Shown here piece after piece: positions 1 through 63,167 of a stretch of 64,000 bases of DNA; the stretch's first letter is position 1; each line of letters opens with the position of its first letter. The position numbers and the translations under genes were made by a program. The notes beneath the pieces are model-generated. The model saw only the letters and a list, made by a program, of their open reading frames with translations. It was not told the origin of the DNA and did not search any database. Source of the DNA: Rhizobium sp. Q54 (GTDB lineage Bacteria; Pseudomonadota; Alphaproteobacteria; SMXS01); NCBI GenBank assembly GCA_945907245.1, contig CAMDTB010000003.1, forward strand, positions 1,457-65,456, given 5' to 3'.

Positions 1-803
1 CCGTCGGTGACATAGACCCGGCCGCTGCGCACCGCCTGGAGACAGGACCAGCCCGGCTTGGCAGTCAGCAGGTGCATCTCATCGAGCACGCGGGGCATGT
101 CGAAGCCGCAGGGCAATATGGAGATGACGTCCGGATCGGCGGCACGCAGCTGGTCCCAGGTCATCCACGGCGAATGCTTGCCCGCCTCGCCGAACAGGTT
201 CGTGCCGCCGGCCATCTCGACCAGCTCGGGCATCCAGTTGCCTGCCGCCATCAGCGGATCGATCCATTCGATGCACGCGACCGTGGGCTTCGGCAGCCCG
301 GCGCAGCGCTCGGTCACCTGCCGCATCCGCGCCTTCAACGCGCCGATCAGCGCCGTGCCGTCCTCCACGCAGCCCAGCGCTATCGCCACCCGTTCGATGT
401 CGGTCCAGACGTCGGCCAGCGCATCGGGACGCAGCGAGACGATATCCACGTGCCGGCCGGTCCAGTTGCACAGGGCCGCCTCCACGTCGGCCAGGCTGGC
501 GGCGCAGACCTCGCACTGATCCTGGGTGACGATCACGTCCGGGTCGATCTCGCGCAGCAGGTCCACATCCACACGGTAGACGGACAGGCCGTCCTTGAGC
601 AGCATCTTGACTTGGGTGTCGATCTCCAGCGACGTGCCGTGCACGTTCAGCTTGGGTTCGGTCAGCCGGGGCAGCGGACCGATCGACGGCGGGTAGTCGC
701 ATTCGTGCGAGCGGCCCAGCAGCCAGGCGCGCTTGCCCAGCGCGCAGACGATCTCGGTGGCGCTGGCGATCAGCGATACGACGCGCTTCGGTTCACCCGG
801 CAC
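1..803 (-). CDS. Cobalamin/siderophore-type binding-protein-fold protein (PBP type 2, BtuF/FhuD-like); C-terminus runs off the window
   Basis: This minus-strand frame is open to position 1, so it is missing from the ORF track. Hand translation gives (M)PGEPKRVVSLIASATEIVCALGKRAWLLGRSHECDYPP...DPDVIVTQDQCEVCAASL...ACIEWIDPLMAAGNWMPELVEMAGG. AAGGAG (complement of 811-816) lies 7 nt from GTG (complement of 801-803). The ATG at 807-809 is only 1 nt from the SD. No signal peptide seen. Confidence 0.6.
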   Translation of the reverse strand, partial: MPGEPKRVVSLIASATEIVCALGKRAWLLGRSHECDYPPSIGPLPRLTEPKLNVHGTSLEIDTQVKMLLKDGLSVYRVDVDLLREIDPDVIVTQDQCEVCAASLADVEAALCNWTGRHVDIVSLRPDALADVWTDIERVAIALGCVEDGTALIGALKARMRQVTERCAGLPKPTVACIEWIDPLMAAGNWMPELVEMAGGTNLFGEAGKHSPWMTWDQLRAADPDVISILPCGFDMPRVLDEMHLLTAKPGWSCLQAVRSGRVYVTD

Positions 804-52134: not shown

Positions 52135-52210
52135 GGGCGAATAGCTCAGTTGGTAGAGCGCCACGTTCACATCGTGGATGTCGGGGGTTCGAGTCCCTCT
52201 TCGCCCACCA
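52135..52210 (+). tRNA. tRNA-Val (anticodon CAC)
   Basis: Hand-folded cloverleaf:
- acceptor GGGCGAA/TTCGCCC
- D arm GCTC-AGTTGGTA-GAGC
- anticodon arm CCACG-TTCACAT-CGTGG
- T arm GGGGG-TTCGAGT-CCCTC
- encoded CCA end. Confidence 0.95.
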
Positions 52211-54117: not shown

Positions 54118-54309
54118 GGCATCTTCTCCTGCGTATGAGCAGCCCGGTCGCACCGACCGCATTCATCATCCCCTAGACCGTCTAACCCGAGCATTGCGAC
54201 AAATCAATCATCACCGCCGAAATTAACCATCGGACGTGTCGGATTCCCTTTGCAACGGCGCGGCCGAGCGGGAATGATCGCGGCGAAACTCAGTCCTGGG
54301 GAGGAACCA

Positions 54310-54378
54310 ATGTCTCGGCTCGCACGGCGCGCAGCGCCTTCGGATTCGGCCTGTCGCCGCGCGCGGTGCGCGCCATGA
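54310..54378 (+). CDS. 22-codon upstream ORF translationally coupled to the ATP-grasp gene (speculative)
   Basis: GGGGAGGA-aacca-ATG, then MSRLARRAAPSDSACRRARCAP. Its TGA (54376-78) overlaps ATG 54375 of the ATP-grasp gene, which has no SD of its own. Confidence 0.25.
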   Translation: MSRLARRAAPSDSACRRARCAP

Positions 54379-55667
54379 AGGTCGGCTCGTTCTTCCCCGA
54401 CCGGCCGTTGCCGACGCTCTACGCCATGGCGGCGGACGACCTGCCGCTGCACTTCAACATGGACGAGCTGACCGACAAGCAGAAGGCCGACCATCACGAG
54501 CAGAACCAGCTGCTCGCCATGCTGCAGTCGGCGCTTTTGTCGATCAGCAAGCCGGCCGACTACGTGGCGCTGTTCGACGCATTCTCGCGGGCGCCGTGGG
54601 ACGGCTTCCTGCGCAACCAGCACGCCATGGCGGCCAAGGCCGGCGCCGAGATGGTGCCGCTCGACCATCTGCTCTACGCGCCGGTCGAGACCTATTACGA
54701 GACCATCGCGACCCAGCTGCCCGACGTCGAGCTGCTGACCCTGCTGATGATGAGCCGGTCGAACCTGGTGCTGCACAAGGACGACCGCGCGATCGAGCGC
54801 ATGCTGAAGCTGAACTCCAAGTTCCACTTCGCCGAGAACGCGCCGCTGTTCGGCATCCCGACGCCGGAAACGATCATCGCCCAGCAGCCGCTGAAGGGGA
54901 ACAACCGGGTCGAGGACTTTTTCGCCAAACACGAGAACCGGATCATCCTGAAGATGACCGGCCAGCCCGGCGCGCGCAGCGTCAAGGCGGTCTCCGACAC
55001 CACCGAGGCCGACGACTACCTGAAGGACTACCGGCCGACCGATCCGGTGCTGGTGCAGCAGCGGCTGCAGCTGGAGAACTACGAGGAGTGGACCGCCGAC
55101 CTGATGATCACCGAGGATTCGGTGACCCTCGACAACGTCCGGCGCATCCTGGTGACCGACGGGCTGTGGATCGGCAACTTCATCTATGCCGATCCGCCGA
55201 TTACCGACTCGCAGAAGGCCGAGCTGCTGAAGATCGGCGCCTATGCCCGGAAATTCGGCTTCGGCACCAAGACCGGCGATTGCCTGGGCATCGACTATTT
55301 CATCGGCAAGGACGGCGAGGTGCTGATCACCGAGATCAACCCGCGCTGGACCGCCGGCCTGTTCCCGACCCAGGTGCTGCGCCGGGTGAACAAGGCGCGC
55401 CGCGACGCGGTGCCGTATTTCGAACTGGTGCGGCTCGACGACTACGAGAAGTTCCAGGCGTTCTGCGCCCGCAACCTGCCCAACAATACCGACGGCCCGT
55501 TCGCGGTGATGCCGCTGGGCTTCTCGCCCTATGAGCGGGAGATCGACGGCGTGAAGCGGGTGTTCACCTGGATGGTGGTGATCGGCGACTTCCCCGCGTT
55601 CCGAAAGGCGGCTAAGGAAGTGCTCGGCGAGAGCGGCCTGCCCAACGGCGACCTGGTGCCGTTGTAA
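54375..55667 (+). CDS. Stand-alone ATP-grasp domain protein of unknown specificity
   Basis: A helical N-terminal half is followed by IILKMTGQPGARSVKAV...VLVQQRL...LGIDYFIGKDGEVLITEINPRWTAGLFP. GTG 54366 is an alternative start. Confidence 0.7.
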   Translation: MKVGSFFPDRPLPTLYAMAADDLPLHFNMDELTDKQKADHHEQNQLLAMLQSALLSISKPADYVALFDAFSRAPWDGFLRNQHAMAAKAGAEMVPLDHLLYAPVETYYETIATQLPDVELLTLLMMSRSNLVLHKDDRAIERMLKLNSKFHFAENAPLFGIPTPETIIAQQPLKGNNRVEDFFAKHENRIILKMTGQPGARSVKAVSDTTEADDYLKDYRPTDPVLVQQRLQLENYEEWTADLMITEDSVTLDNVRRILVTDGLWIGNFIYADPPITDSQKAELLKIGAYARKFGFGTKTGDCLGIDYFIGKDGEVLITEINPRWTAGLFPTQVLRRVNKARRDAVPYFELVRLDDYEKFQAFCARNLPNNTDGPFAVMPLGFSPYEREIDGVKRVFTWMVVIGDFPAFRKAAKEVLGESGLPNGDLVPL

Positions 55668-55668
55668 G

Positions 55669-58293
55669 CTAGGAAGCCGCTTTCGCCCGATTGCGGACCC
55701 GGAACCGCTCGACCTCCTCCAACGCCCTGTGGCTGTCGAAGGCGACGGCGACCAGCAGGTCGCCGGGACGGCCGTCCTCCATCATGGCGGTGATGGTGTC
55801 GCGCCCCTGCTCGTTGACAATGGCACGCTCGGGCACGACCGCCGCGCGCAGCCCCTCGGCGATCACATTGCCGACCTCGCCGGAACGGCGGCCGCGCAGT
55901 TCGGGAAAATCGGTGAAGTAGTAGCGGTCGAAATGACCGGCGGCGGCACAGCCCAGCGTCCGCAGCCAGTCGTCGCTGCGATTGCCCGGCGCGCTCAAGC
56001 ACAGCATCCGTGCGCCCTTCACTTCCTCGCCGGCCAGGGTCTCTGCCATGTCGCGCATGGCGACCTCGCCGTCGAGCCACTGCAGCAGGAAGCCGAACGG
56101 CAAACCCAGGATCCGGTTGTGCCGCCCGGGATTCTGCGCCGGATCCGACTGGAAGGTCGTCAGGGCCCGAATGATGGCGCCGGCTGGCATTCCCATCCCG
56201 CAGGCCATGCCCGTCGCGAACATGGCGTTGGTAACGATCGCGCGGGCGCGGCCGTCCAAGGCGGCCGGGATCGCCCCTACCGGCAACTCGAATACCGACG
56301 TATCGCCGTCCGCGACGCGGATGGCTCCGTCGTACAGCGTCACGGTACGGCCGCCATTCGCCCGGTGCGCGGCAATCTCCGGATGGCCCGGATCGCGGGC
56401 GACGAGGGCGATCCTGGCGCGCGTAATCTTGCCCATGGCCAGCACCAGCGGGTCCTCGGCATTGAGGATCAGCCATCTGCGGGCGCTGCGGGCCAGGACC
56501 GCCTTCACCGCTGCGAGCTGCTCGCGCGTCGCGATACCATCCATGCCCACATGGTTGTCGTGGACGTTCAACACAGCCGCAACGTCGACGCCTTCGAGAG
56601 TCATGCCATGCTTGAGCATGGCGCCGCGAGCGAACTCGAACACGCCGGCCTTCACCGCCGGATCGGCCAGCAGCCGCAAAGCCATGCCGCCGCCGGAGGA
56701 GTCGCCGGAGGCGAGCCGGTAGCCACCCGACCACACGCCCTGGCTGGTGCAAAGGCCGGTATGGAGGCCCGCCTCAGACGTGATCCGCGCCAGCATCTGG
56801 CAGGTCGTGGTCTTGCCCATGCTGCCGGTGACGCCGGCGGTCGGGATTCTGCTGGGCGCGCTCTGGGGAAACGACCGGCGAACGATGGGCGTCACTACAT
56901 CCTGGTCCGGATTGGCGATCCAGTGCGGCCTTAGGCCCGCCGGCGCGTTCAGTTCCAGCACCCATCCACCCACCTCGCGCCAGGAGCGGGAAATGTCGGT
57001 GGTGATGAAATCGACGCCCGCCACACCCATGCCAATCGCGACCGCCGCGCGCTCTGCCGCGGCGCGGTTGTCAGGGTGGACGATGCCGGTTACGTCCACG
57101 GCAGTGCCGCCCAGCGAGATGTTCGCCGCCAGCGTCAGCCAGACAGTGACGCCGTTGGCGGGCACCGAGTCCAGCGTCAGCGACTGGCGCGCAAGCTGAT
57201 CCAGCAATGGCGGCCCGACAGCCACCCGCTCCATCAGCATTTCGTATGGTCCGCCGCGGCGCGGATCAGCGTTGAGCCGGTCAACCAGCGCCGCGACCGT
57301 GCTCTCGCCGTCGCCGGTCACATGCGCGGCGAGTCGCTTGGCCGCGGCAATCATCCTGCCGTCGACGACCAACAGCCGGTGATCGTCGCCCTGCGCGTGG
57401 GCTTCGACCATGACCCGCCTGCCGTCAGCGGCGGCCCGGCGATAGGCCTGTCGGATATCGGTTTCGGACTTCAGGTTCACGGATACGCCGCGCCCCTTGC
57501 CGGAATCCACCGGCTTCACCACCACCGCGCCGCCGATGCGGGCCGCCACGGCGACCGCCTCATCCTCGCCGCGGACCAATTCGGAACGCAGCACCGGCAC
57601 ACCCTGATAGGACAGCCATCGGACCGTCGCGTCCTTGTCCCGCGAGAGGAGATGGCCGACGTGATCTGCGGGCTCAAGCACCGTCTCGAAGGCGAGCCTC
57701 CTGTGGACGCCCTCACCCAACTGCAAGCGGGGGCCCGGAAGCGGCAGCCGGTAGACCGGAATCCCCAGTCGACGCGCCGCCCGGGCGATGGCGATGCTGA
57801 GCATGTCGGGCGCGGTGCGGCGCGCAACACGGATGAACTCCGCGTGATGCCGGACGATCCGCTCCGCCCCATCCCGATCCGCGCCGCCGCGCAACCAGCG
57901 CGCCAGATGCAGCGCCGCATTCCACGCCGCAACCACGACGCTCTCGTCGTCTGCAGGCACCAGCACCGTCAGCTCGAGTCCGGCGCTGGAGTGCCGCACT
58001 ACCGCCTCGCCGGGCCACAGCAGATAGGGCTCCTGAAGATGGGCCGCGACGCTCGCGGCGAAGCCGATGGCACCGCCAGGACCGTCCCCGACTCCCTTGG
58101 CAGCGGCCTCGGCAAGGCCGAAGCCCGACGGCTGCGCCCTCAGGAAGTCGAGTGCGCCCCGGTCCAGCGCCAGCGCCTCCGTCATCACCGTGTCGTCACC
58201 GTCTACCTCGATGCGCAGACACAGCACCGTCCGGGACGCCATCAGGTTGGCTCCCTTGAGGAACCGGCTCCCCTTGATCCTGATCAGCGTCAC
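55669..58293 (-). CDS. Cyanophycin synthetase-like amide ligase (N domain + ATP-grasp + Mur-ligase domains)
   Basis: - ATP-grasp block: VVVKPVDSGKGRGVSVNL, HRLLVVDGRMIAAAKR, ANISLGGTAVDVT, VLELNAPAGLRPH.
- Mur-ligase block: GVTGSMGKTTTCQMLA, NVHDNHVG.
- Start is ambiguous. GTG at 58291-93 keeps the CphA-like N-terminus IRIKGSRFLKGAN. ATG at 58240-42 has the better SD (AAGGGAG, 8 nt).
- The 999-aa ORF-track version is an over-extension. Confidence 0.8.
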   Translation of the reverse strand: MTLIRIKGSRFLKGANLMASRTVLCLRIEVDGDDTVMTEALALDRGALDFLRAQPSGFGLAEAAAKGVGDGPGGAIGFAASVAAHLQEPYLLWPGEAVVRHSSAGLELTVLVPADDESVVVAAWNAALHLARWLRGGADRDGAERIVRHHAEFIRVARRTAPDMLSIAIARAARRLGIPVYRLPLPGPRLQLGEGVHRRLAFETVLEPADHVGHLLSRDKDATVRWLSYQGVPVLRSELVRGEDEAVAVAARIGGAVVVKPVDSGKGRGVSVNLKSETDIRQAYRRAAADGRRVMVEAHAQGDDHRLLVVDGRMIAAAKRLAAHVTGDGESTVAALVDRLNADPRRGGPYEMLMERVAVGPPLLDQLARQSLTLDSVPANGVTVWLTLAANISLGGTAVDVTGIVHPDNRAAAERAAVAIGMGVAGVDFITTDISRSWREVGGWVLELNAPAGLRPHWIANPDQDVVTPIVRRSFPQSAPSRIPTAGVTGSMGKTTTCQMLARITSEAGLHTGLCTSQGVWSGGYRLASGDSSGGGMALRLLADPAVKAGVFEFARGAMLKHGMTLEGVDVAAVLNVHDNHVGMDGIATREQLAAVKAVLARSARRWLILNAEDPLVLAMGKITRARIALVARDPGHPEIAAHRANGGRTVTLYDGAIRVADGDTSVFELPVGAIPAALDGRARAIVTNAMFATGMACGMGMPAGAIIRALTTFQSDPAQNPGRHNRILGLPFGFLLQWLDGEVAMRDMAETLAGEEVKGARMLCLSAPGNRSDDWLRTLGCAAAGHFDRYYFTDFPELRGRRSGEVGNVIAEGLRAAVVPERAIVNEQGRDTITAMMEDGRPGDLLVAVAFDSHRALEEVERFRVRNRAKAAS

Positions 58294-58440
58294 CTCCTCG
58301 TCCGACCGCCAGGCTCTGGACGGATCAGGGCAGTATCGGGACTGCGGGCCTGGCGCGCAATCACAGACGGCCGGTGGCGCGCCGGACGGAAAACTGCTAA
58401 CCGTCGGGGAACCTTCGAAAACTCCGAGGAAGGCCCCCTC

Positions 58441-59172
58441 GTGACCTATTGCCTGGGAATCCTGCTGACTTCCGGCCTTGTCATGGCCGCCGACTCGCGG
58501 TCGAACGCGGGCATCGATGATTTCACCAGCGTCTACAAGCTGGACCTGATCGACGTCCCCGGAAAGCGGGTCATCGTCATCCTGTCCGCCGGCAACCTGG
58601 CGACCACCCAGTCCGTCATAACCCAGTTGCGCGAGTACTCCGACCATGGCGGACCACGGGACCTGCATAAGGTCAAGACGATGTACGAGGCGGCCAAGGC
58701 TGTCGGCGACACGTTGCGCGAGGTGATCGCCCGCGACGGCTCCTACGTCGCGCCCTATGGCAGCGCCGCGGGCAGCTTCATCGTCGGCGGCCAGATCGCT
58801 GGAGAAGCGCCGCGGCTGTTCCAGATCTATACGGCGGGGAATTTCATCGAGGCATCGCCGCGGTCGCGCTACCTGCAGCTTGGCGAGACCAAATACGGCA
58901 AGCCGATCCTGGACCGGGCGCTGCGGTTCGACAGCCCGCTGGACCAGGCCGCCAAGCTGGCGCTGCTATCGTTCGACGCCGCCATGCGCAGCGACCTGTC
59001 GGTCGCCATGCCGATCGACATCCTGCGTTACGAGGCGGACAGCTTCTGCAGCACCAACCGGGCGTCGCTGGAGAAGGACGATCCGTACTGGAGCGCCCTG
59101 CGCACGGCCTATGGCGACGGGCTGGCGGCGCTGGTCGAACGCCTGCCGCCGCCGCCGGACTGGAGCGCCTGA
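58441..59172 (+). CDS. Anbu-type proteasome-like Ntn peptidase
   Basis: GAGGAAGG lies 7 nt before GTG 58441. The product (M)TYCLGILLTSGLVMAADSRSNAGIDDF...VIVILSAGNLATTQSV... is 243 aa, with Thr immediately after the initiator. It is hidden in the tail of ORF 57076..59172. Confidence 0.8.
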   Translation: MTYCLGILLTSGLVMAADSRSNAGIDDFTSVYKLDLIDVPGKRVIVILSAGNLATTQSVITQLREYSDHGGPRDLHKVKTMYEAAKAVGDTLREVIARDGSYVAPYGSAAGSFIVGGQIAGEAPRLFQIYTAGNFIEASPRSRYLQLGETKYGKPILDRALRFDSPLDQAAKLALLSFDAAMRSDLSVAMPIDILRYEADSFCSTNRASLEKDDPYWSALRTAYGDGLAALVERLPPPPDWSA

Positions 59173-59215
59173 CGCGGCGCTGGTAGTCTGGCACCCACCA
59201 GCAAGGGAGCCGCCC

Positions 59216-59659
59216 ATGACCGCCCGTCCCATCGTGGTTTCGCCTGCCGATTATGCCCGCCCGCTCGACGTGGTGGGCGAGCACATCACCGTGCTCGCTT
59301 CGCGGGCGGCTACCGAAGGCTATGAAATCTTCCTGCAGGAAGGCCCGGAAGGCAGCGGCCCGCCGCCGCACAGTCATGGCTGGGACGAATCCTTCTTCGT
59401 CATCGAAGGCACGGTGGAATTCGGACACGGCGACGAGCAGCTGAGCGCCGGACCCGGCACGCTGGTGCACCTGCCCGCCGGCACCACCCACTGGTTCCGT
59501 TTCGCCCCCGGCGGCGGCCGGATGCTGAGCATCAGCGGCAACGGCAGCAACGCCGCGCGCATGTTCACCGCGATGGACGCGGAAATTCCCTCCGGCGCGC
59601 CCGACATACCCAAGGTCGTCGCCGTCGCCCGCCGCCACGGGCTGACCATCGGCGAGTGA
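59216..59659 (+). CDS. Cupin domain-containing protein
   Basis: PPHSHGWDESFFVIEGTVEF...GTLVHLPAGTTHWF two-motif cupin. AGGGAG lies before the ATG, 43 bp after anbu. Confidence 0.75.
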   Translation: MTARPIVVSPADYARPLDVVGEHITVLASRAATEGYEIFLQEGPEGSGPPPHSHGWDESFFVIEGTVEFGHGDEQLSAGPGTLVHLPAGTTHWFRFAPGGGRMLSISGNGSNAARMFTAMDAEIPSGAPDIPKVVAVARRHGLTIGE

Positions 59660-59758
59660 CTGACCGCGTATTTTGCGTATTGCGGGAACTCAGGTAGCCC
59701 GATGCGCATTCCCTGTTCTGCGCCTTCGATATCAAGGCGGAATGAAAAGGGATCCCGC

Positions 59759-60211
59759 ATGGTTCAGAAAAGTTTGACGGCGATGGGCATGCTGCTGCTG
59801 GCATGCATGGCCACGACCGGTGCCGGCGCAGCGCAGCCTGCGGCGAAAGGCTATTCGCTGACGGTCGAGGTGACCGGGGCCAAGGAGACCACCGGAGTCG
59901 TCAGAGCCGCGTTGTTCAACGACCCGGCGGCGTTCCCGGACGGCAAATTCAGCCAGGACGCGGCGGTCCCGCTCAAAGGCAAGAATTCGGTGCGGCTGGT
60001 GTTCAGGAACCTGCCGGCCGGCACCTACGCGATCAGCCTCTATCACGATGCCGACAACAACGACAAATTCGGCAAGACGCTGGGCCTTCCCAAGGAAAGC
60101 TACGGCTTCTCGGTGGTCAAGGACGCGGTGTTGTCGAAGCCGGAATTCGACGACGCCAAGTTCGAGGTGAAAAAGAACACCTCGATCACCATCCCGCTGC
60201 TGGGGCCGTGA
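59759..60211 (+). CDS. DUF2141 domain-containing secreted protein
   Basis: Signal peptide MVQKSLTAMGMLLLACMATTGAGAA. GVVRAALFND...YAISLYHDADNNDKFGKTLGLPKESYGFS. Confidence 0.7.
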   Translation: MVQKSLTAMGMLLLACMATTGAGAAQPAAKGYSLTVEVTGAKETTGVVRAALFNDPAAFPDGKFSQDAAVPLKGKNSVRLVFRNLPAGTYAISLYHDADNNDKFGKTLGLPKESYGFSVVKDAVLSKPEFDDAKFEVKKNTSITIPLLGP

Positions 60212-60453
60212 ACCGGGATCAGCCCCCGAATTCCTTTCGACCTTCTTCGAGCAGAACGTACCGCTCCCGCGGCACGCCGGCACGCCGGCACGCGGTTTCT
60301 GCCCACGTTCTCCACCCGCATCCTTGCAAAACAATCACGGTTGCATGATCCTTCCCTTGGGGAGACTCGCGTGCATAGCCGGACGATTCCGTGCGGCGTG
60401 GCCGATCCCCGGCGGCGTGAGCGACCCGCTCCGCCCGGCAAACGGAGGGTGTC

Positions 60454-61854
60454 ATGGACGATCTGGTGAGAGGCGATTTCCGCGAGGACCGCTGCCCGGC
60501 CGAAAGCTATACCGAGGTTCTGGAGCGCGACCGCGTCCCGTCGCCGGACTACATGCGGCAGGGTCCGACGCCCGACATCGGCACCGCGCCGGTCGCCGCC
60601 TCGCGCTATTACGACCAAGGGTTCTTCCAGAAGGAAGTCGAGCACCTGTGGCCGCATGTGTGGCACTGGGCCTGCCGCGAGGAGGAGATCCCTCAGGTCG
60701 GCGACCATGTGGTCTACGAGTTCACCGGCAAGTCGTTCATCATCGTCCGCAGCGCCCCGGGCGAGATCAAGGCGCTGTACAATTCCTGCCTGCACCGGGG
60801 CCGCAAGCTGGCGGTGAACGGCGGCCACAAGCTGAGCTTCCGCTGCCCCTATCACGGACTGGTGTGGAAGGCCGACGGCACCTTCCAGGAGAATCCGTTC
60901 CCGTGGGATTTCCCGCAATGGGCCGGCGGGGCGCCGGACCTGCCCGAAGCGCGGGTCGGCACCTGGGGCGGCTTCGTGTTCATCAACATGGACCCGGACG
61001 CGCCGTCGCTGGAGGAGGTGCTGGGCCCGCTGCCGGCGCATTTCGAGCGCTATGACTTCGAGAACCGCTACATCGCCGCCCATGTGGTCAAGAAGGTGCG
61101 CGCCAACTGGAAGGCGACCGCCGAGGCGTTCATGGAAAGCCACCACGTCATCGGCACCCATCCGCAGGGCCTGGCCACCATCGGCGACGCCAACAGCCAG
61201 TACGACATCCTGAGCGAGTATGTGGACCGGCAGTTCTCGGCCACCGCCATCCAGAGCCCGCACCTGAAGACCCAGCTGAGCGAGCAGCAGATCCTCGATT
61301 CCTATTTCGGCGGCCGCGCCGTGATGGTGGGCGACCAGCCGGGGCGGATGACCCTGCCCGAGGGTATGACCGCCCGGGCCTTCGCCGCCGAGATCGCGCG
61401 CAAGACGCTGGCGGAGCAGACCGGGCAGGACTATTCCCACGCCGGCGACGCCGAAATGCTGGATTCCCTGCTCTACAATGTGTTCCCGCATATGAGCTTC
61501 TGGATCAGCATGTCGCGCAACATCGTCTATCGCTGGCGGCCCAACGGACTCGATCCCGAGACTTCGCTGATGGATATCATGATGCTGCGGCCGGTACCCA
61601 GGGACGGCGTGCGGCCCAAGCCGGCGCCGGTTCGCTACATGGACCTCGACGAGCCGATGACCGAAGCCGGCAAGGAACTGAGCGACATGCTGGCGCTGGT
61701 CTACGAACAGGACATGGTCAACCTGCCGCACGTCCAGACGGGCCTGCGCGCCAGCGGATCGGGCACGGTGGAGTTCAGCAACTACATGGAGTCGCGGCTG
61801 CGCTATCACCACCAGCTGATCGACCGTTTCATCGCCGAGGGCGAAGCGAAATGA
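60454..61854 (+). CDS. Rieske (2Fe-2S) aromatic-ring-hydroxylating oxygenase alpha subunit
   Basis: CLHRGRKL...CPYHGLVW Rieske box and a catalytic-domain His motif (ESHHVIGTHP). No beta subunit or reductase gene nearby. Confidence 0.85.
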   Translation: MDDLVRGDFREDRCPAESYTEVLERDRVPSPDYMRQGPTPDIGTAPVAASRYYDQGFFQKEVEHLWPHVWHWACREEEIPQVGDHVVYEFTGKSFIIVRSAPGEIKALYNSCLHRGRKLAVNGGHKLSFRCPYHGLVWKADGTFQENPFPWDFPQWAGGAPDLPEARVGTWGGFVFINMDPDAPSLEEVLGPLPAHFERYDFENRYIAAHVVKKVRANWKATAEAFMESHHVIGTHPQGLATIGDANSQYDILSEYVDRQFSATAIQSPHLKTQLSEQQILDSYFGGRAVMVGDQPGRMTLPEGMTARAFAAEIARKTLAEQTGQDYSHAGDAEMLDSLLYNVFPHMSFWISMSRNIVYRWRPNGLDPETSLMDIMMLRPVPRDGVRPKPAPVRYMDLDEPMTEAGKELSDMLALVYEQDMVNLPHVQTGLRASGSGTVEFSNYMESRLRYHHQLIDRFIAEGEAK

Positions 61855-62135
61855 TCGGAATCGTGGCGACGCTGAAGGTGCAGCCGGGCTTGGGCGCGGA
61901 CTTCGAGACACACATGACGGCCATGACCGACTCGGTCGAGCGCAACGAGGTGGGCAACGTGTTCTACCGGGCCCACCTTCTGGCGCCGGACACCTTCCTG
62001 GTGCTGGAGCTGTACCGGGACCGCGACGCCGTCGACGCCCACGGCAAGTCGGCGCATGTGGCCGAGGCGCTGCCCCGGGTCGGCGCGATGCTCGACGGCG
62101 ACGTCGAGGTCCAGATCCTCGAGCAGGTATGGTGA
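61851..62135 (+). CDS. Antibiotic-biosynthesis-monooxygenase (ABM/Dabb) domain protein
   Basis: 94 aa. Ferredoxin-like pattern IVATLKVQPG...FLVLELYRDRDAVDAHGKSAHV. Overlaps the oxygenase stop. Confidence 0.7.
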   Translation: MIGIVATLKVQPGLGADFETHMTAMTDSVERNEVGNVFYRAHLLAPDTFLVLELYRDRDAVDAHGKSAHVAEALPRVGAMLDGDVEVQILEQVW

Positions 62136-62139
62136 ACTC

Positions 62140-62412
62140 ATGATCGGCACCGTCGCGCGGATGCAGGTCCGCCCTGGCTATACCGAGCAGTTCGAGTTCG
62201 CCTCCCGGCAGATGGTCGAGGAGGCACGGGTTCGCGACGGCTGCGTGTTCTTCGGCCTGTTCCGGGCCGACACGCCGGGCCTCTACGTCTTCATGGGCCG
62301 CTGGACCGACAAGGCCATTGCCGACGCCTACAGCAGTCCGGGACGGTTCAACGTCCAGTTCCGCGCCTTCATGGACGGCGAGGCTGAATACGCCACCTGC
62401 CCGGAGATCTAG
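62140..62412 (+). CDS. Second ABM-like domain protein
   Basis: MIGTVARMQVRPGYTEQFEF...YVFMGRWTDKAIADAY. Inner ATG of ORF 62056..62412. Confidence 0.6.
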   Translation: MIGTVARMQVRPGYTEQFEFASRQMVEEARVRDGCVFFGLFRADTPGLYVFMGRWTDKAIADAYSSPGRFNVQFRAFMDGEAEYATCPEI

Positions 62413-62451
62413 TCTGCGCGGCCCACCGGTTCATCGGCAGGCCGCACCGAC

Positions 62452-62520
62452 TCATAATACGAAGGCCAGCACCGCGCCGACGACGACGACCAGGCCGACG
62501 ATGTAGATGATGTTGTTCAT
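62452..62520 (-). CDS. 22-aa hydrophobic mini-protein (speculative)
   Basis: AAGGAG lies 7 nt before the ATG. MNNIIYIVGLVVVVGAVLAFVL* forms a single transmembrane helix. Confidence 0.3.
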   Translation of the reverse strand: MNNIIYIVGLVVVVGAVLAFVL

Positions 62521-62680
62521 GTCACGTCTCCTTGTTGAAGCCGGTTAAACGCAGGTTCGCGGGGCATCGTTCCTTTTCGCGCGGCAATCGACCGTCAATA
62601 CCGGCAATAATTTTTCCGGACGCGCGCATCCTTTGGCCGCCCGCCGCGTTATCCGGCTACCGCCATTCGGCGCGGAGCGG

Positions 62681-63167
62681 GAGGACATCATCTTGGACTG
62701 GATCAGGGAGCATCTGATCGTCGCCGGCCTATTTCGTGCCCGACGACTTCACCCGGTCGGCGATCGTCGCGGCGATCGCGCGCGGTGTGCGGGTCCGGGT
62801 GATCGTCCCCGGCAAGCACATCGACGCCGTCGTTGTCGGCAAGGCCTCACGCGAAACCTGGGGCGAGTTGCTGCAGGCTGGCGCCGAGATCCACGTGTTC
62901 CAGCCGACCATGTTCCACTGCGAGATGCTGGTGGTGGACGGCCAGCTCGTCTCGGTCGGTTCGACCAACTTCGACAACCGCTCGTTCCGGCTCAACGACG
63001 AGGCCAACCTGAACGTCTATGACCAGGCCTTCGCGGAGAAGATGACCGGCATCTTCGAGGGCGACCTGGGGCGTTCCACGGAAATGACCTATGAGGAATG
63101 GCGGCAGCGCCCGTGGCACGAGAAGCTGATGGAGAAACTGGCCAGCCTGTTCTCGTCCCAGCTTTAG
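62681..63167 (+). pseudogene. C-terminal remnant of a phospholipase D/cardiolipin synthase family gene
   Basis: Only the second HKD module is present, and it reads HCEMLVVDGQLVSVGSTNFDNRSFRLNDE, with Lys replaced by Glu at 62922-24. An in-frame TGA at 62715-17 and an apparent frameshift near 62729 cut off the upstream part. The first HKD module is absent. Confidence 0.6.

Follow-up and report, generated by a model that had tools for sequence, protein, structure and literature searches.

Anbu is a proteasome-family enzyme without reported activity on any substrate (PMC5666114), and as of a 2021 survey no Anbu had a known substrate or function (PMC8665760). Many bacteria carrying cphA1, the gene for the cyanophycin synthetase CphA1, are without a recognisable cyanophycinase, and a Thr-nucleophile Ntn enzyme, IaaA, already acts in cyanophycin catabolism (PMC10206079). 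In a stretch of 64,000 nucleotides of contig CAMDTB010000003.1 from Rhizobium sp. Q54 (hereafter the window), a gene for Anbu lies next to a gene for a CphA1-related ligase, with a gene for an ATP-grasp ligase on one side of the pair and a cupin gene on the other. The initial annotation of this DNA had proposed that the ligases build a peptide polymer or tag which Anbu processes or degrades. Such a partnership, if true, would bear on the function of Anbu and on the missing cyanophycinases, and a role of Anbu as depolymerase or primer peptidase would, if true, mean that a physiological substrate had been identified for an Anbu for the first time. A survey of gene neighbourhoods gave no adjacency of the two genes beyond close relatives, and did not bear the proposal out. 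On balance, the locus is probably a lineage-restricted patchwork of separately transcribed, independently acting genes and not an Anbu-centred system.

Organization of the locus

The ATP-grasp ligase, a protein of 430 amino acids without a Pfam family, is encoded on the forward strand at 54375-55667. The CphA1-related ligase (874 amino acids, with N, G (ATP-grasp) and M (Mur-ligase-like) domains) occupies 55669-58293 on the reverse strand and is convergent with it, the two stop codons (55669-55671 and 55665-55667, respectively) being separated by a single nucleotide. A spacer of 147 bp (58294-58440) divides the start of the CphA-like gene from the divergent start of the Anbu gene, which runs from 58441 to 59172 on the forward strand and encodes, from a GTG start codon, 243 amino acids with the N-terminus (M)TYCLGI. 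The co-directional cupin gene (59216-59659, forward strand; 147 amino acids; Pfam Cupin_2, E 1.7e-11) follows Anbu after 43 bp. The positions of the four genes and the three spacings were as given in the initial annotation.

The circularly permuted ATP-grasp, Alpha-E and transglutaminase genes that accompany Anbu in its canonical operon were searched for by tblastn, using as queries the proteins of a Pfam-verified canonical Anbu operon (locus L056). No match was obtained in the window or in the related loci L005 to L009 (E <= 0.01), and the earlier statement that no COG2308, COG2307 or COG1305 partner is present in the window was thereby upheld.

Gene order in Emcibacter-like relatives

The closest named relative, Emcibacter sp. 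SYSU 3D8 (L006), has ATP-grasp and Anbu proteins which are 89% and 73% identical, respectively, to those of the window. Among the relatives, the region between a conserved gene of the acyl-CoA-dehydrogenase family (HsaA-like) and a PLD gene was found in five forms. The window and L119/L090 share the order ATP-grasp, CphA-like gene (reverse strand), Anbu and cupin, while in L007/L008, which derive from two independent samples, the order is ATP-grasp, Anbu, CphA-like gene (reverse strand) and cupin. The Emcibacter locus L006 consists of ATP-grasp, Anbu and cupin genes without a CphA-like gene, with 25 bp from ATP-grasp to Anbu. In L115 an ATP-grasp gene whose product is 96% identical to that of the window is followed by an internally deleted Anbu (L115 1266-1514), in which an in-frame deletion fuses residue ~14 to residue ~176, so that the catalytic Thr is kept and most of the fold is gone. 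Finally, in L005 the PLD gene stands directly after the ATP-grasp gene (84% identical), and neither a CphA-like gene nor Anbu is present. Orthologues of the cupin (85-90% identity) are located after Anbu in L006 and L090 and after the CphA-like gene in L007.

Since their Anbu proteins are 98% identical, L119 and L090 were counted as one lineage. Besides the window, two more related lineages (L119/L090 and L007/L008) thus have the CphA-like gene and Anbu side by side, and the adjacency is not peculiar to a single strain. The two genes never share a strand: they are divergent in the window and L119, and in L007 they converge with 9 bp between them. Identity of the ATP-grasp protein places the window together with L115, L007 and L006, and L119 outside this group; compared with the distribution of the five gene orders, this grouping requires several rearrangements or losses.

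Gene neighbourhoods beyond the close relatives

The CphA-like protein belongs to a subfamily of about 38-43 clusters among its best matches, here named the K/NH-type after two signature residues. Seven members outside the Emcibacter-like group were inspected, namely P0084, P0085 (L009), P0087, P0090 (L117), P0097 (L118), L010 (Prosthecochloris) and L011 (Ramlibacter). Within the DNA read around these genes (mostly 8-10 kb per side; 2.4 kb on one side of L010) Anbu was found near none of the seven.

A metagenome scan with the Anbu protein returned 27 loci. For relatives with identities of up to 56% the setting was the canonical operon, in which Anbu accompanies genes for the circularly permuted ATP-grasp, Alpha-E and transglutaminase proteins, while about ten relatives with 54-67% identity had no canonical partner, CphA-like, ATP-grasp or cupin gene nearby, their annotated flanks carrying DUF1835, hexapeptide-transferase, AraC and LacI genes. 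Likewise, homologues of the ATP-grasp protein at 65%, 50% and 40% identity had neither Anbu nor a CphA-like gene as a neighbour. In one instance both proteins were assigned to one molecule: P0211 (Anbu, 75% identical) and P0085 (the CphA-like protein of L009, 53% identical) were taken to lie on the same contig of 1,307,260 bp (ENA), more than 10 kb apart.

A profile scan of contigs with the subfamily alignment served as a control and not as a survey, almost all of the matches listed being canonical CphA1 of no more than 42% identity. Among at least 80 mainly canonical cphA1 loci, two from Steroidobacteraceae (L056 and L057) lie some 2 kb from a complete Anbu operon of the canonical kind; this proximity was treated as coincidence because the other Steroidobacteraceae loci listed are without an Anbu operon. 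In both of these metagenome-assembled genomes (L056 10001-18316, and L057) cphA1 is followed by a gene for a 578-residue protein with only the M and C portions of a Mur ligase, and the Anbu operon is on the opposite strand.

Neither gene family as a whole shows the adjacency of CphA-like gene and Anbu. Because this adjacency occurs only in a few close relatives, and in a stretch of chromosome prone to rearrangement, a local patchwork is likelier than a new tagging and degradation system. Read in this way, the locus would belong to an alphaproteobacterial relative of Emcibacter and lie in a rearrangement-prone part of its chromosome. The ATP-grasp gene would be expressed from its own conserved upstream block, translationally coupled to a short leader open reading frame (ORF), and would specify an ATP-dependent amide or peptide ligase. 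From the opposite strand the CphA-like gene would give an enzyme which, as in CphA1, extends a backbone at the G domain and adds side chains at the M domain, with a cyanophycin-like polyamide other than Asp-Arg cyanophycin as its presumed product. Anbu would be a Thr-1 peptidase, intact, and a member of a large subtype that resides, wherever the context was read, outside the canonical operon and beside unrelated genes. The adjacency itself would have been inherited within one small group, in which it was reshuffled, or one or both genes were lost, several times.

The CphA-like ligase

The 874-residue protein aligned over residues 80-864 with the structures of CphA1 (7lgm, E 9e-133; 7lgn, E 2e-131) and carries the P-loop sequence GSMGKTTT. 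The "complete cyanophycin-synthetase architecture" of the initial annotation was therefore correct at the level of domains, while by Pfam only ATP-grasp and Mur_ligase_M were detected, the N domain (PF18921) and Mur_ligase_C going unrecognised. The protein scored 577.5 bits against the TIGR02068 equivalog (cut-off 850) and 580.5 bits against PRK14016 (cut-off 877).

Residues were mapped onto TeCphA1 and SuCphA1, and 38 subfamily sequences were compared with 76 canonical ones. Invariant in the subfamily are both P-loop lysines (including K494), R309, R458, E553, H581, N689 and R724; the G-domain Arg309 and the Asp-binding Arg458 correspond to R306 and R455 of the window protein. Since both ligase domains keep the residues that bind ATP and Mg, the enzyme is probably active at two sites, each of which would still bind ATP.

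The subfamily-specific changes in the window ligase are H267K, E215L, T491S, D585N, HN741/742DG and D771N, together with HLQEP for HxxEH. In the M domain, position 585 is Asp in 93% of canonical sequences and Asn in 95% of the subfamily, where an Asp is found one residue earlier and His586 is kept. Mutation of the pair in CphA1 (D585A/H586A) inactivates the M domain. The HN at window positions 741-742, which resembles the DxAHNP motif of Mur ligases, is conserved in canonical enzymes (His 95%, Asn 96%) and replaced in the subfamily by Asp (92%) and Gly (92%). The Asp of the GDRRD motif at window position 771 (Asp in 93% of canonical sequences) is Asn in 84% of the subfamily, changing the motif to GNRSD, and the M-domain P-loop, canonically TGTNGKT (Thr 92%), becomes TGSxGKT (Ser 97%). 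Of the G-domain positions, 267 is His in 89% of canonical sequences and Lys in 92% of the subfamily (K266 in the window). The H267A mutant of CphA1 is inactive (PMC9262961), and His267 has been proposed to stabilise the acyl-phosphate (PMC9427784). Position 215 is Glu in 88% of canonical sequences, variable in the subfamily and Leu in the window (L215); in CphA1, E215 is required for recognition of the (beta-Asp-Arg) primer (PMC9427784). The Cx19HxxEH site of the N domain, which reads HLQEP in the window, has HxxEH in no aligned member of the subfamily; this primer-generating site is present in ~80% of CphA1 enzymes and hence is not obligatory (PMC9262961).

Since the positions that recognise the Asp-Arg polymer have been exchanged, as have a number of acidic ones in the M site, the product is probably something other than ordinary Asp-Arg cyanophycin. 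That the enzyme is an ordinary cyanophycin synthetase, producing an Asp-Arg nitrogen store, and that its divergence is neutral, would agree with the alignment along the full length of CphA1, with the retention of R309, R458, H586 and both P-loop lysines, and with the name "cyanophycin synthetase" that some subfamily members bear in their source databases. This explanation is nonetheless unlikely in view of an equivalog score of 577 bits where 850 is the cut-off, of Lys in place of a residue whose removal inactivates CphA1 (PMC9262961), of the loss of conservation at the primer-recognising E215 (PMC9427784), and of the changes at D585, HN and GDRRD; moreover, no cyanophycinase or dipeptidase gene lies nearby. 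In the literature searched, the K/NH-type subfamily was not described, and a search for a named third type of CphA gave nothing relevant. The subfamily appears to be an undescribed variant, within the literature that could be searched, of a known kind of enzyme related to CphA1.

An alpha/beta-hydrolase was considered as a conserved partner of K/NH-type genes and rejected, the families being different (Abhydrolase_3, Abhydrolase_6 and Abhydrolase_1) and the gene being absent from L010, L011 and L117. Abhydrolase_3 genes were located 29-64 bp downstream in L009 (12638-13582) and P0087, and Abhydrolase_6 genes in P0084 and L118 (11031-11732). In L117 (6214-12642) the K/NH-type ligase forms a three-gene cluster with two paralogues of the CphA G domain, a 596-residue protein whose gene overlaps the start of the ligase gene and a 665-residue protein whose convergent gene overlaps its end. 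These two ATP-grasp proteins had been considered as relatives of the 430-residue enzyme of the window and were set aside as G-domain paralogues.

The Anbu peptidase

The 243-residue protein matched five solved Anbu chains with E values of 7e-74 to 2e-60 (5loy, 7e-74; 5lox from P. aeruginosa, 7e-68; 5nyw, 1.5e-65), as against 8e-05 for the best proteasome beta subunit, and no HslV chain was listed; its identification in the initial annotation as Anbu and not HslV was thus confirmed. Alignment to Pa-Anbu revealed the catalytic set T1, D17, K32 and G50 (the oxyanion Gly), with Thr directly after the initiator and no propeptide, the roles of the residues being taken from PMC5666114. The C-terminal helical extension (H5) is covered as well, the alignment with 5loy and 5lox reaching residue 239-240 of 243. 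Judged from these features, the protein is an intact Anbu of the Anbu-1 type.

The S1 pocket, S20-V30-S48-L52-T55, departs from that of Anbu-1 (T20-F30-T48-L52-S/T55) and is also unlike the basic pocket of Anbu-2. Residues S20, V30, L52 and T55 are common to all of the 120 nearest Anbu clusters (P0201-P0320, at least 66% identity) and S48 to 112 of them; the named sources of these clusters are Rhizomicrobium, Caulobacteraceae, Sphingomonadales and Emcibacter. Operon-linked Anbu have the Anbu-1 residues T20, F or Y at position 30, and T48. The pocket is identical with or without a CphA-like neighbour. The S20-V30-S48 proteins appear to constitute a large "orphan" subtype of Anbu, located outside the canonical operon wherever the context was read and undescribed in the literature that could be searched.

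The pocket also bears on the proposal of the initial annotation, under which a polyamide or tag made by the CphA-like ligase, possibly together with the ATP-grasp enzyme, is trimmed or degraded by Anbu as an alternative cyanophycinase or primer-generating peptidase. The pocket has no change specific to the loci with a CphA-like gene, and no acidic residue for a basic side chain. In addition, the two genes are never co-directional and their orientation varies, L006 has an intact Anbu without the ligase, the seven more distant members of the ligase subfamily have no Anbu nearby, Anbu of the same subtype have no such ligase nearby where the context was read, and in the genome of L009 the two genes are separated by more than 10 kb. 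This makes the proposal quite unlikely.

Several points do count in its favour and weigh against a patchwork. All three Emcibacter-like lineages with a CphA-like gene keep Anbu directly adjacent in spite of the changed order, so that the pair is found in two arrangements, and of the three relatives without a CphA-like gene only L006 has an intact Anbu, the gene being degraded or absent in the other two. Decay of Anbu where the ligase is missing would fit a functional link, with the qualification that the numbers are tiny and the lineages non-independent. A ligase whose N domain is without HxxEH, the primer-making site of ~80% of CphA1 enzymes (PMC9262961), could make use of a peptidase acting in trans. 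A yet unidentified cyanophycinase has been postulated for many genomes with cphA1 (PMC10206079), and no S51 cyanophycinase was seen among the called or scanned neighbours of K/NH-type genes. In P. putida, nitrogen limitation is reported to be a strong inducer of Anbu operons (note added in PMC3235984) which, cyanophycin being a nitrogen store, makes a thematic link conceivable. Co-occurrence, furthermore, was read from neighbourhoods, and at a distance in one genome only (that of P0211 and P0085). Taken together, the reasons for retaining a model in which Anbu processes the polymer are too few and too dependent on common ancestry to carry weight, and its probability is low. This analysis produced no evidence for a link between Anbu and cyanophycin, and a literature search on both gave nothing relevant.

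The ATP-grasp ligase and its leader

The homologues of the ATP-grasp protein begin with MKxGSFFP, based on which the true start was placed at the ATG at 54375, giving a protein of 430 amino acids and not 431 or 433. The coupled upstream ORF reported in the initial annotation together with a length of 431 amino acids was recovered, and the length was corrected. This leader (54310-54378, forward strand) comprises 22 codons, is preceded by GGAGGA 5 nucleotides 5' of its ATG, and has a stop codon that overlaps the start of the ATP-grasp gene as ATGA. In L005, L006 and L007 a leader ORF of 19-24 codons takes the same place, and there too it is preceded by a Shine-Dalgarno sequence and overlaps the ATP-grasp start as ATGA; the peptide sequence is not conserved among these loci and the window. 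In the distant homologues L001 and L003 the leader ORF is missing, and these genes have Shine-Dalgarno sequences of their own.

A promoter-like block (TTGCAA, 17 nucleotides, AATGAT) was located 5' of the gene at 54250-54278 on the forward strand. The block ATTCCCTTTGCA...GGGAATGATCG is kept in the window, L005, L006 and L007 with a spacing of 17-19 nucleotides. Only 8 of its 12 positions agree with the sigma-70 consensus, which explains why it was missed by the consensus scan, and it was tentatively identified as a promoter.

No Pfam match and no sequence match in the PDB were obtained for the protein, and at the sequence level it gave only marginal matches to ATP-grasp proteins (E 2e-4). The AlphaFold model (pLDDT 92.6) had as its top Foldseek matches 7r8p (SAOUHSC_02373, E 4e-16), 8ynd (an ATP-grasp peptide ligase), 3wvq/3wvr and PurK; the entries 3wvq/3wvr, deposited as "ATP grasp protein", are presumably PGM1. 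Residues D310, E323 and N325 are invariant across 42 homologues, E323 and N325 being the Mg-binding residues of an E-x-N motif. On the basis of the model, the 430-residue protein is predicted to have an ATP-grasp fold with a Mg-binding E-x-N motif. Of the three family matches expected in the initial annotation, that of Anbu was obtained outright, the CphA-like protein aligned with CphA1 but reached 577 of the 850 bits of TIGR02068, and the ATP-grasp protein was recognised by its fold, its sequence matches being marginal.

The family comprises ~80 clusters of ~430 amino acids. Two paralogues, 84% and 40% identical to the window protein (P0007 and P0069, both on a contig of 3,794,918 bp from JGI), occur in apparently one genome, so that two or more lineages of the family are represented in these bacteria.

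The ATP-grasp ligase and Anbu might instead be the real pair, a minimal analogue of the canonical ATP-grasp/Anbu combination in which the CphA-like gene is an interloper, as their co-directional, operon-like arrangement 25-32 bp apart in L006, L007 and L115 and the peptide ligase among the nearest structural neighbours of the enzyme would suggest, but this is very unlikely given the 2.6-kb opposite-strand gene that intervenes in the window and L119, the internally deleted Anbu beside the 96% identical ligase of L115, the lack of Anbu with L005 (84%) and with the homologues at 65%, 50% and 40% identity, and the other Anbu of this subtype without such a ligase nearby. It is highly improbable that, in the Emcibacter-like lineage, the K/NH-type ligase makes a non-Asp-Arg polyamide for which the S20/V30-type Anbu is the dedicated depolymerase or primer-generating peptidase.

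Other features of the window

Neither a consensus promoter or terminator nor an Rfam match was obtained in the 147-bp spacer, which is partially conserved with L119 and L090; scans for Rfam families, promoters and terminators across the locus yielded nothing informative. The idea that the CphA-like gene carries one upstream region in both arrangements was abandoned, since the upstream region of L007 could not be convincingly aligned to that of the window and L119. Mobility of the CphA-like gene was also considered and rejected: there are no notable flanking direct or inverted repeats and no insertion sequence, and its G+C content at third codon positions (0.85) is inside the range of the window (0.82-0.94), without compositional anomaly. 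A tRNA-Val gene (anticodon CAC) is located at 52135-52210, 2 kb upstream of the locus, between a gene for a HAD phosphatase and a conserved ORF of 78 amino acids with the acyl-CoA-dehydrogenase-family gene; the intervening genes keep their synteny in relatives, and it was discarded as a sign of mobility.

Downstream of the cupin gene, the window (59702-63164) contains a block of genes and a PLD remnant where relatives have only PLD. The block consists of a gene for a DUF2141 protein (59702-60211), one for the alpha subunit of a Rieske ring-hydroxylating oxygenase (60454-61854) and two small ORFs resembling small monooxygenase genes (61851-62412). The 3' remnant of PLD (62721-63164) corresponds to residues 281-428 of the protein, the block having taken the place of the missing part. 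Truncation and insertion are further turnover in this region and agree with a patchwork.

Implications

The neighbourhood of Anbu and the CphA-like gene is probably a local accident of gene order, and experiments would be needed before it is called a system. The K/NH-type subfamily of ligases and the S20/V30 subtype of Anbu are more solid than the partnership. The former may make a different polymer and is relevant to biopolymer work. The latter, a large alphaproteobacterial subtype with an S1 pocket of its own and, wherever the context was read, a location outside the canonical operon, argues for an Anbu that can act independently of ATP-grasp, Alpha-E and transglutaminase partners.

Comparison with known systems

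Compared with the canonical Anbu operon (COG2308, COG2307, COG1305 and Anbu), the window Anbu is of the same family and has the same catalytic residues and C-terminal extension. The difference is in its surroundings, all three partners being absent from the 64 kb, and in the pocket, where Val replaces the Phe or Tyr of operon-linked Anbu at position 30 and Ser replaces Thr at position 20. The ATP-grasp neighbour in the window is an ordinary one of another family, while the canonical partner is circularly permuted. The model of the initial annotation would assign to Anbu the role of the S51 cyanophycinases CphB, CphE and CphI.

The ATP-grasp protein resembles 8ynd, 3wvq/3wvr and S. aureus SAOUHSC_02373 in fold (TM-scores of 0.63-0.66; Foldseek E ~1e-15), yet its identity to them is only 13-16%, and the window gene is not surrounded by a biosynthetic cluster.

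The CphA-like ligase has the N-G-M layout of CphA1 (7lg5, 7lgm, 7lgn and 7wac), aligns with it from end to end with ~40% identity to typical CphA1, and has in common with it the ATP-binding residues of the ATP-grasp and Mur-ligase domains, R309 and R458. It differs from CphA1 in the altered positions 267 and 215, 585, HN, GDRRD and P-loop, in having no Cx19HxxEH site and no cyanophycinase neighbour, and in scoring below the curated cut-off. CphA2 and the second cphA copies found beside cphA1 are likewise diverged paralogues with changed active sites; the second copies in L062 and L067 have Gln at position 267, and the M domain of CphA2 is truncated and inactive (PMC10273328). The ligase of the window, by contrast, is the product of a single stand-alone gene without a canonical cphA1 partner, and retains a full-length M domain with its P-loop intact.

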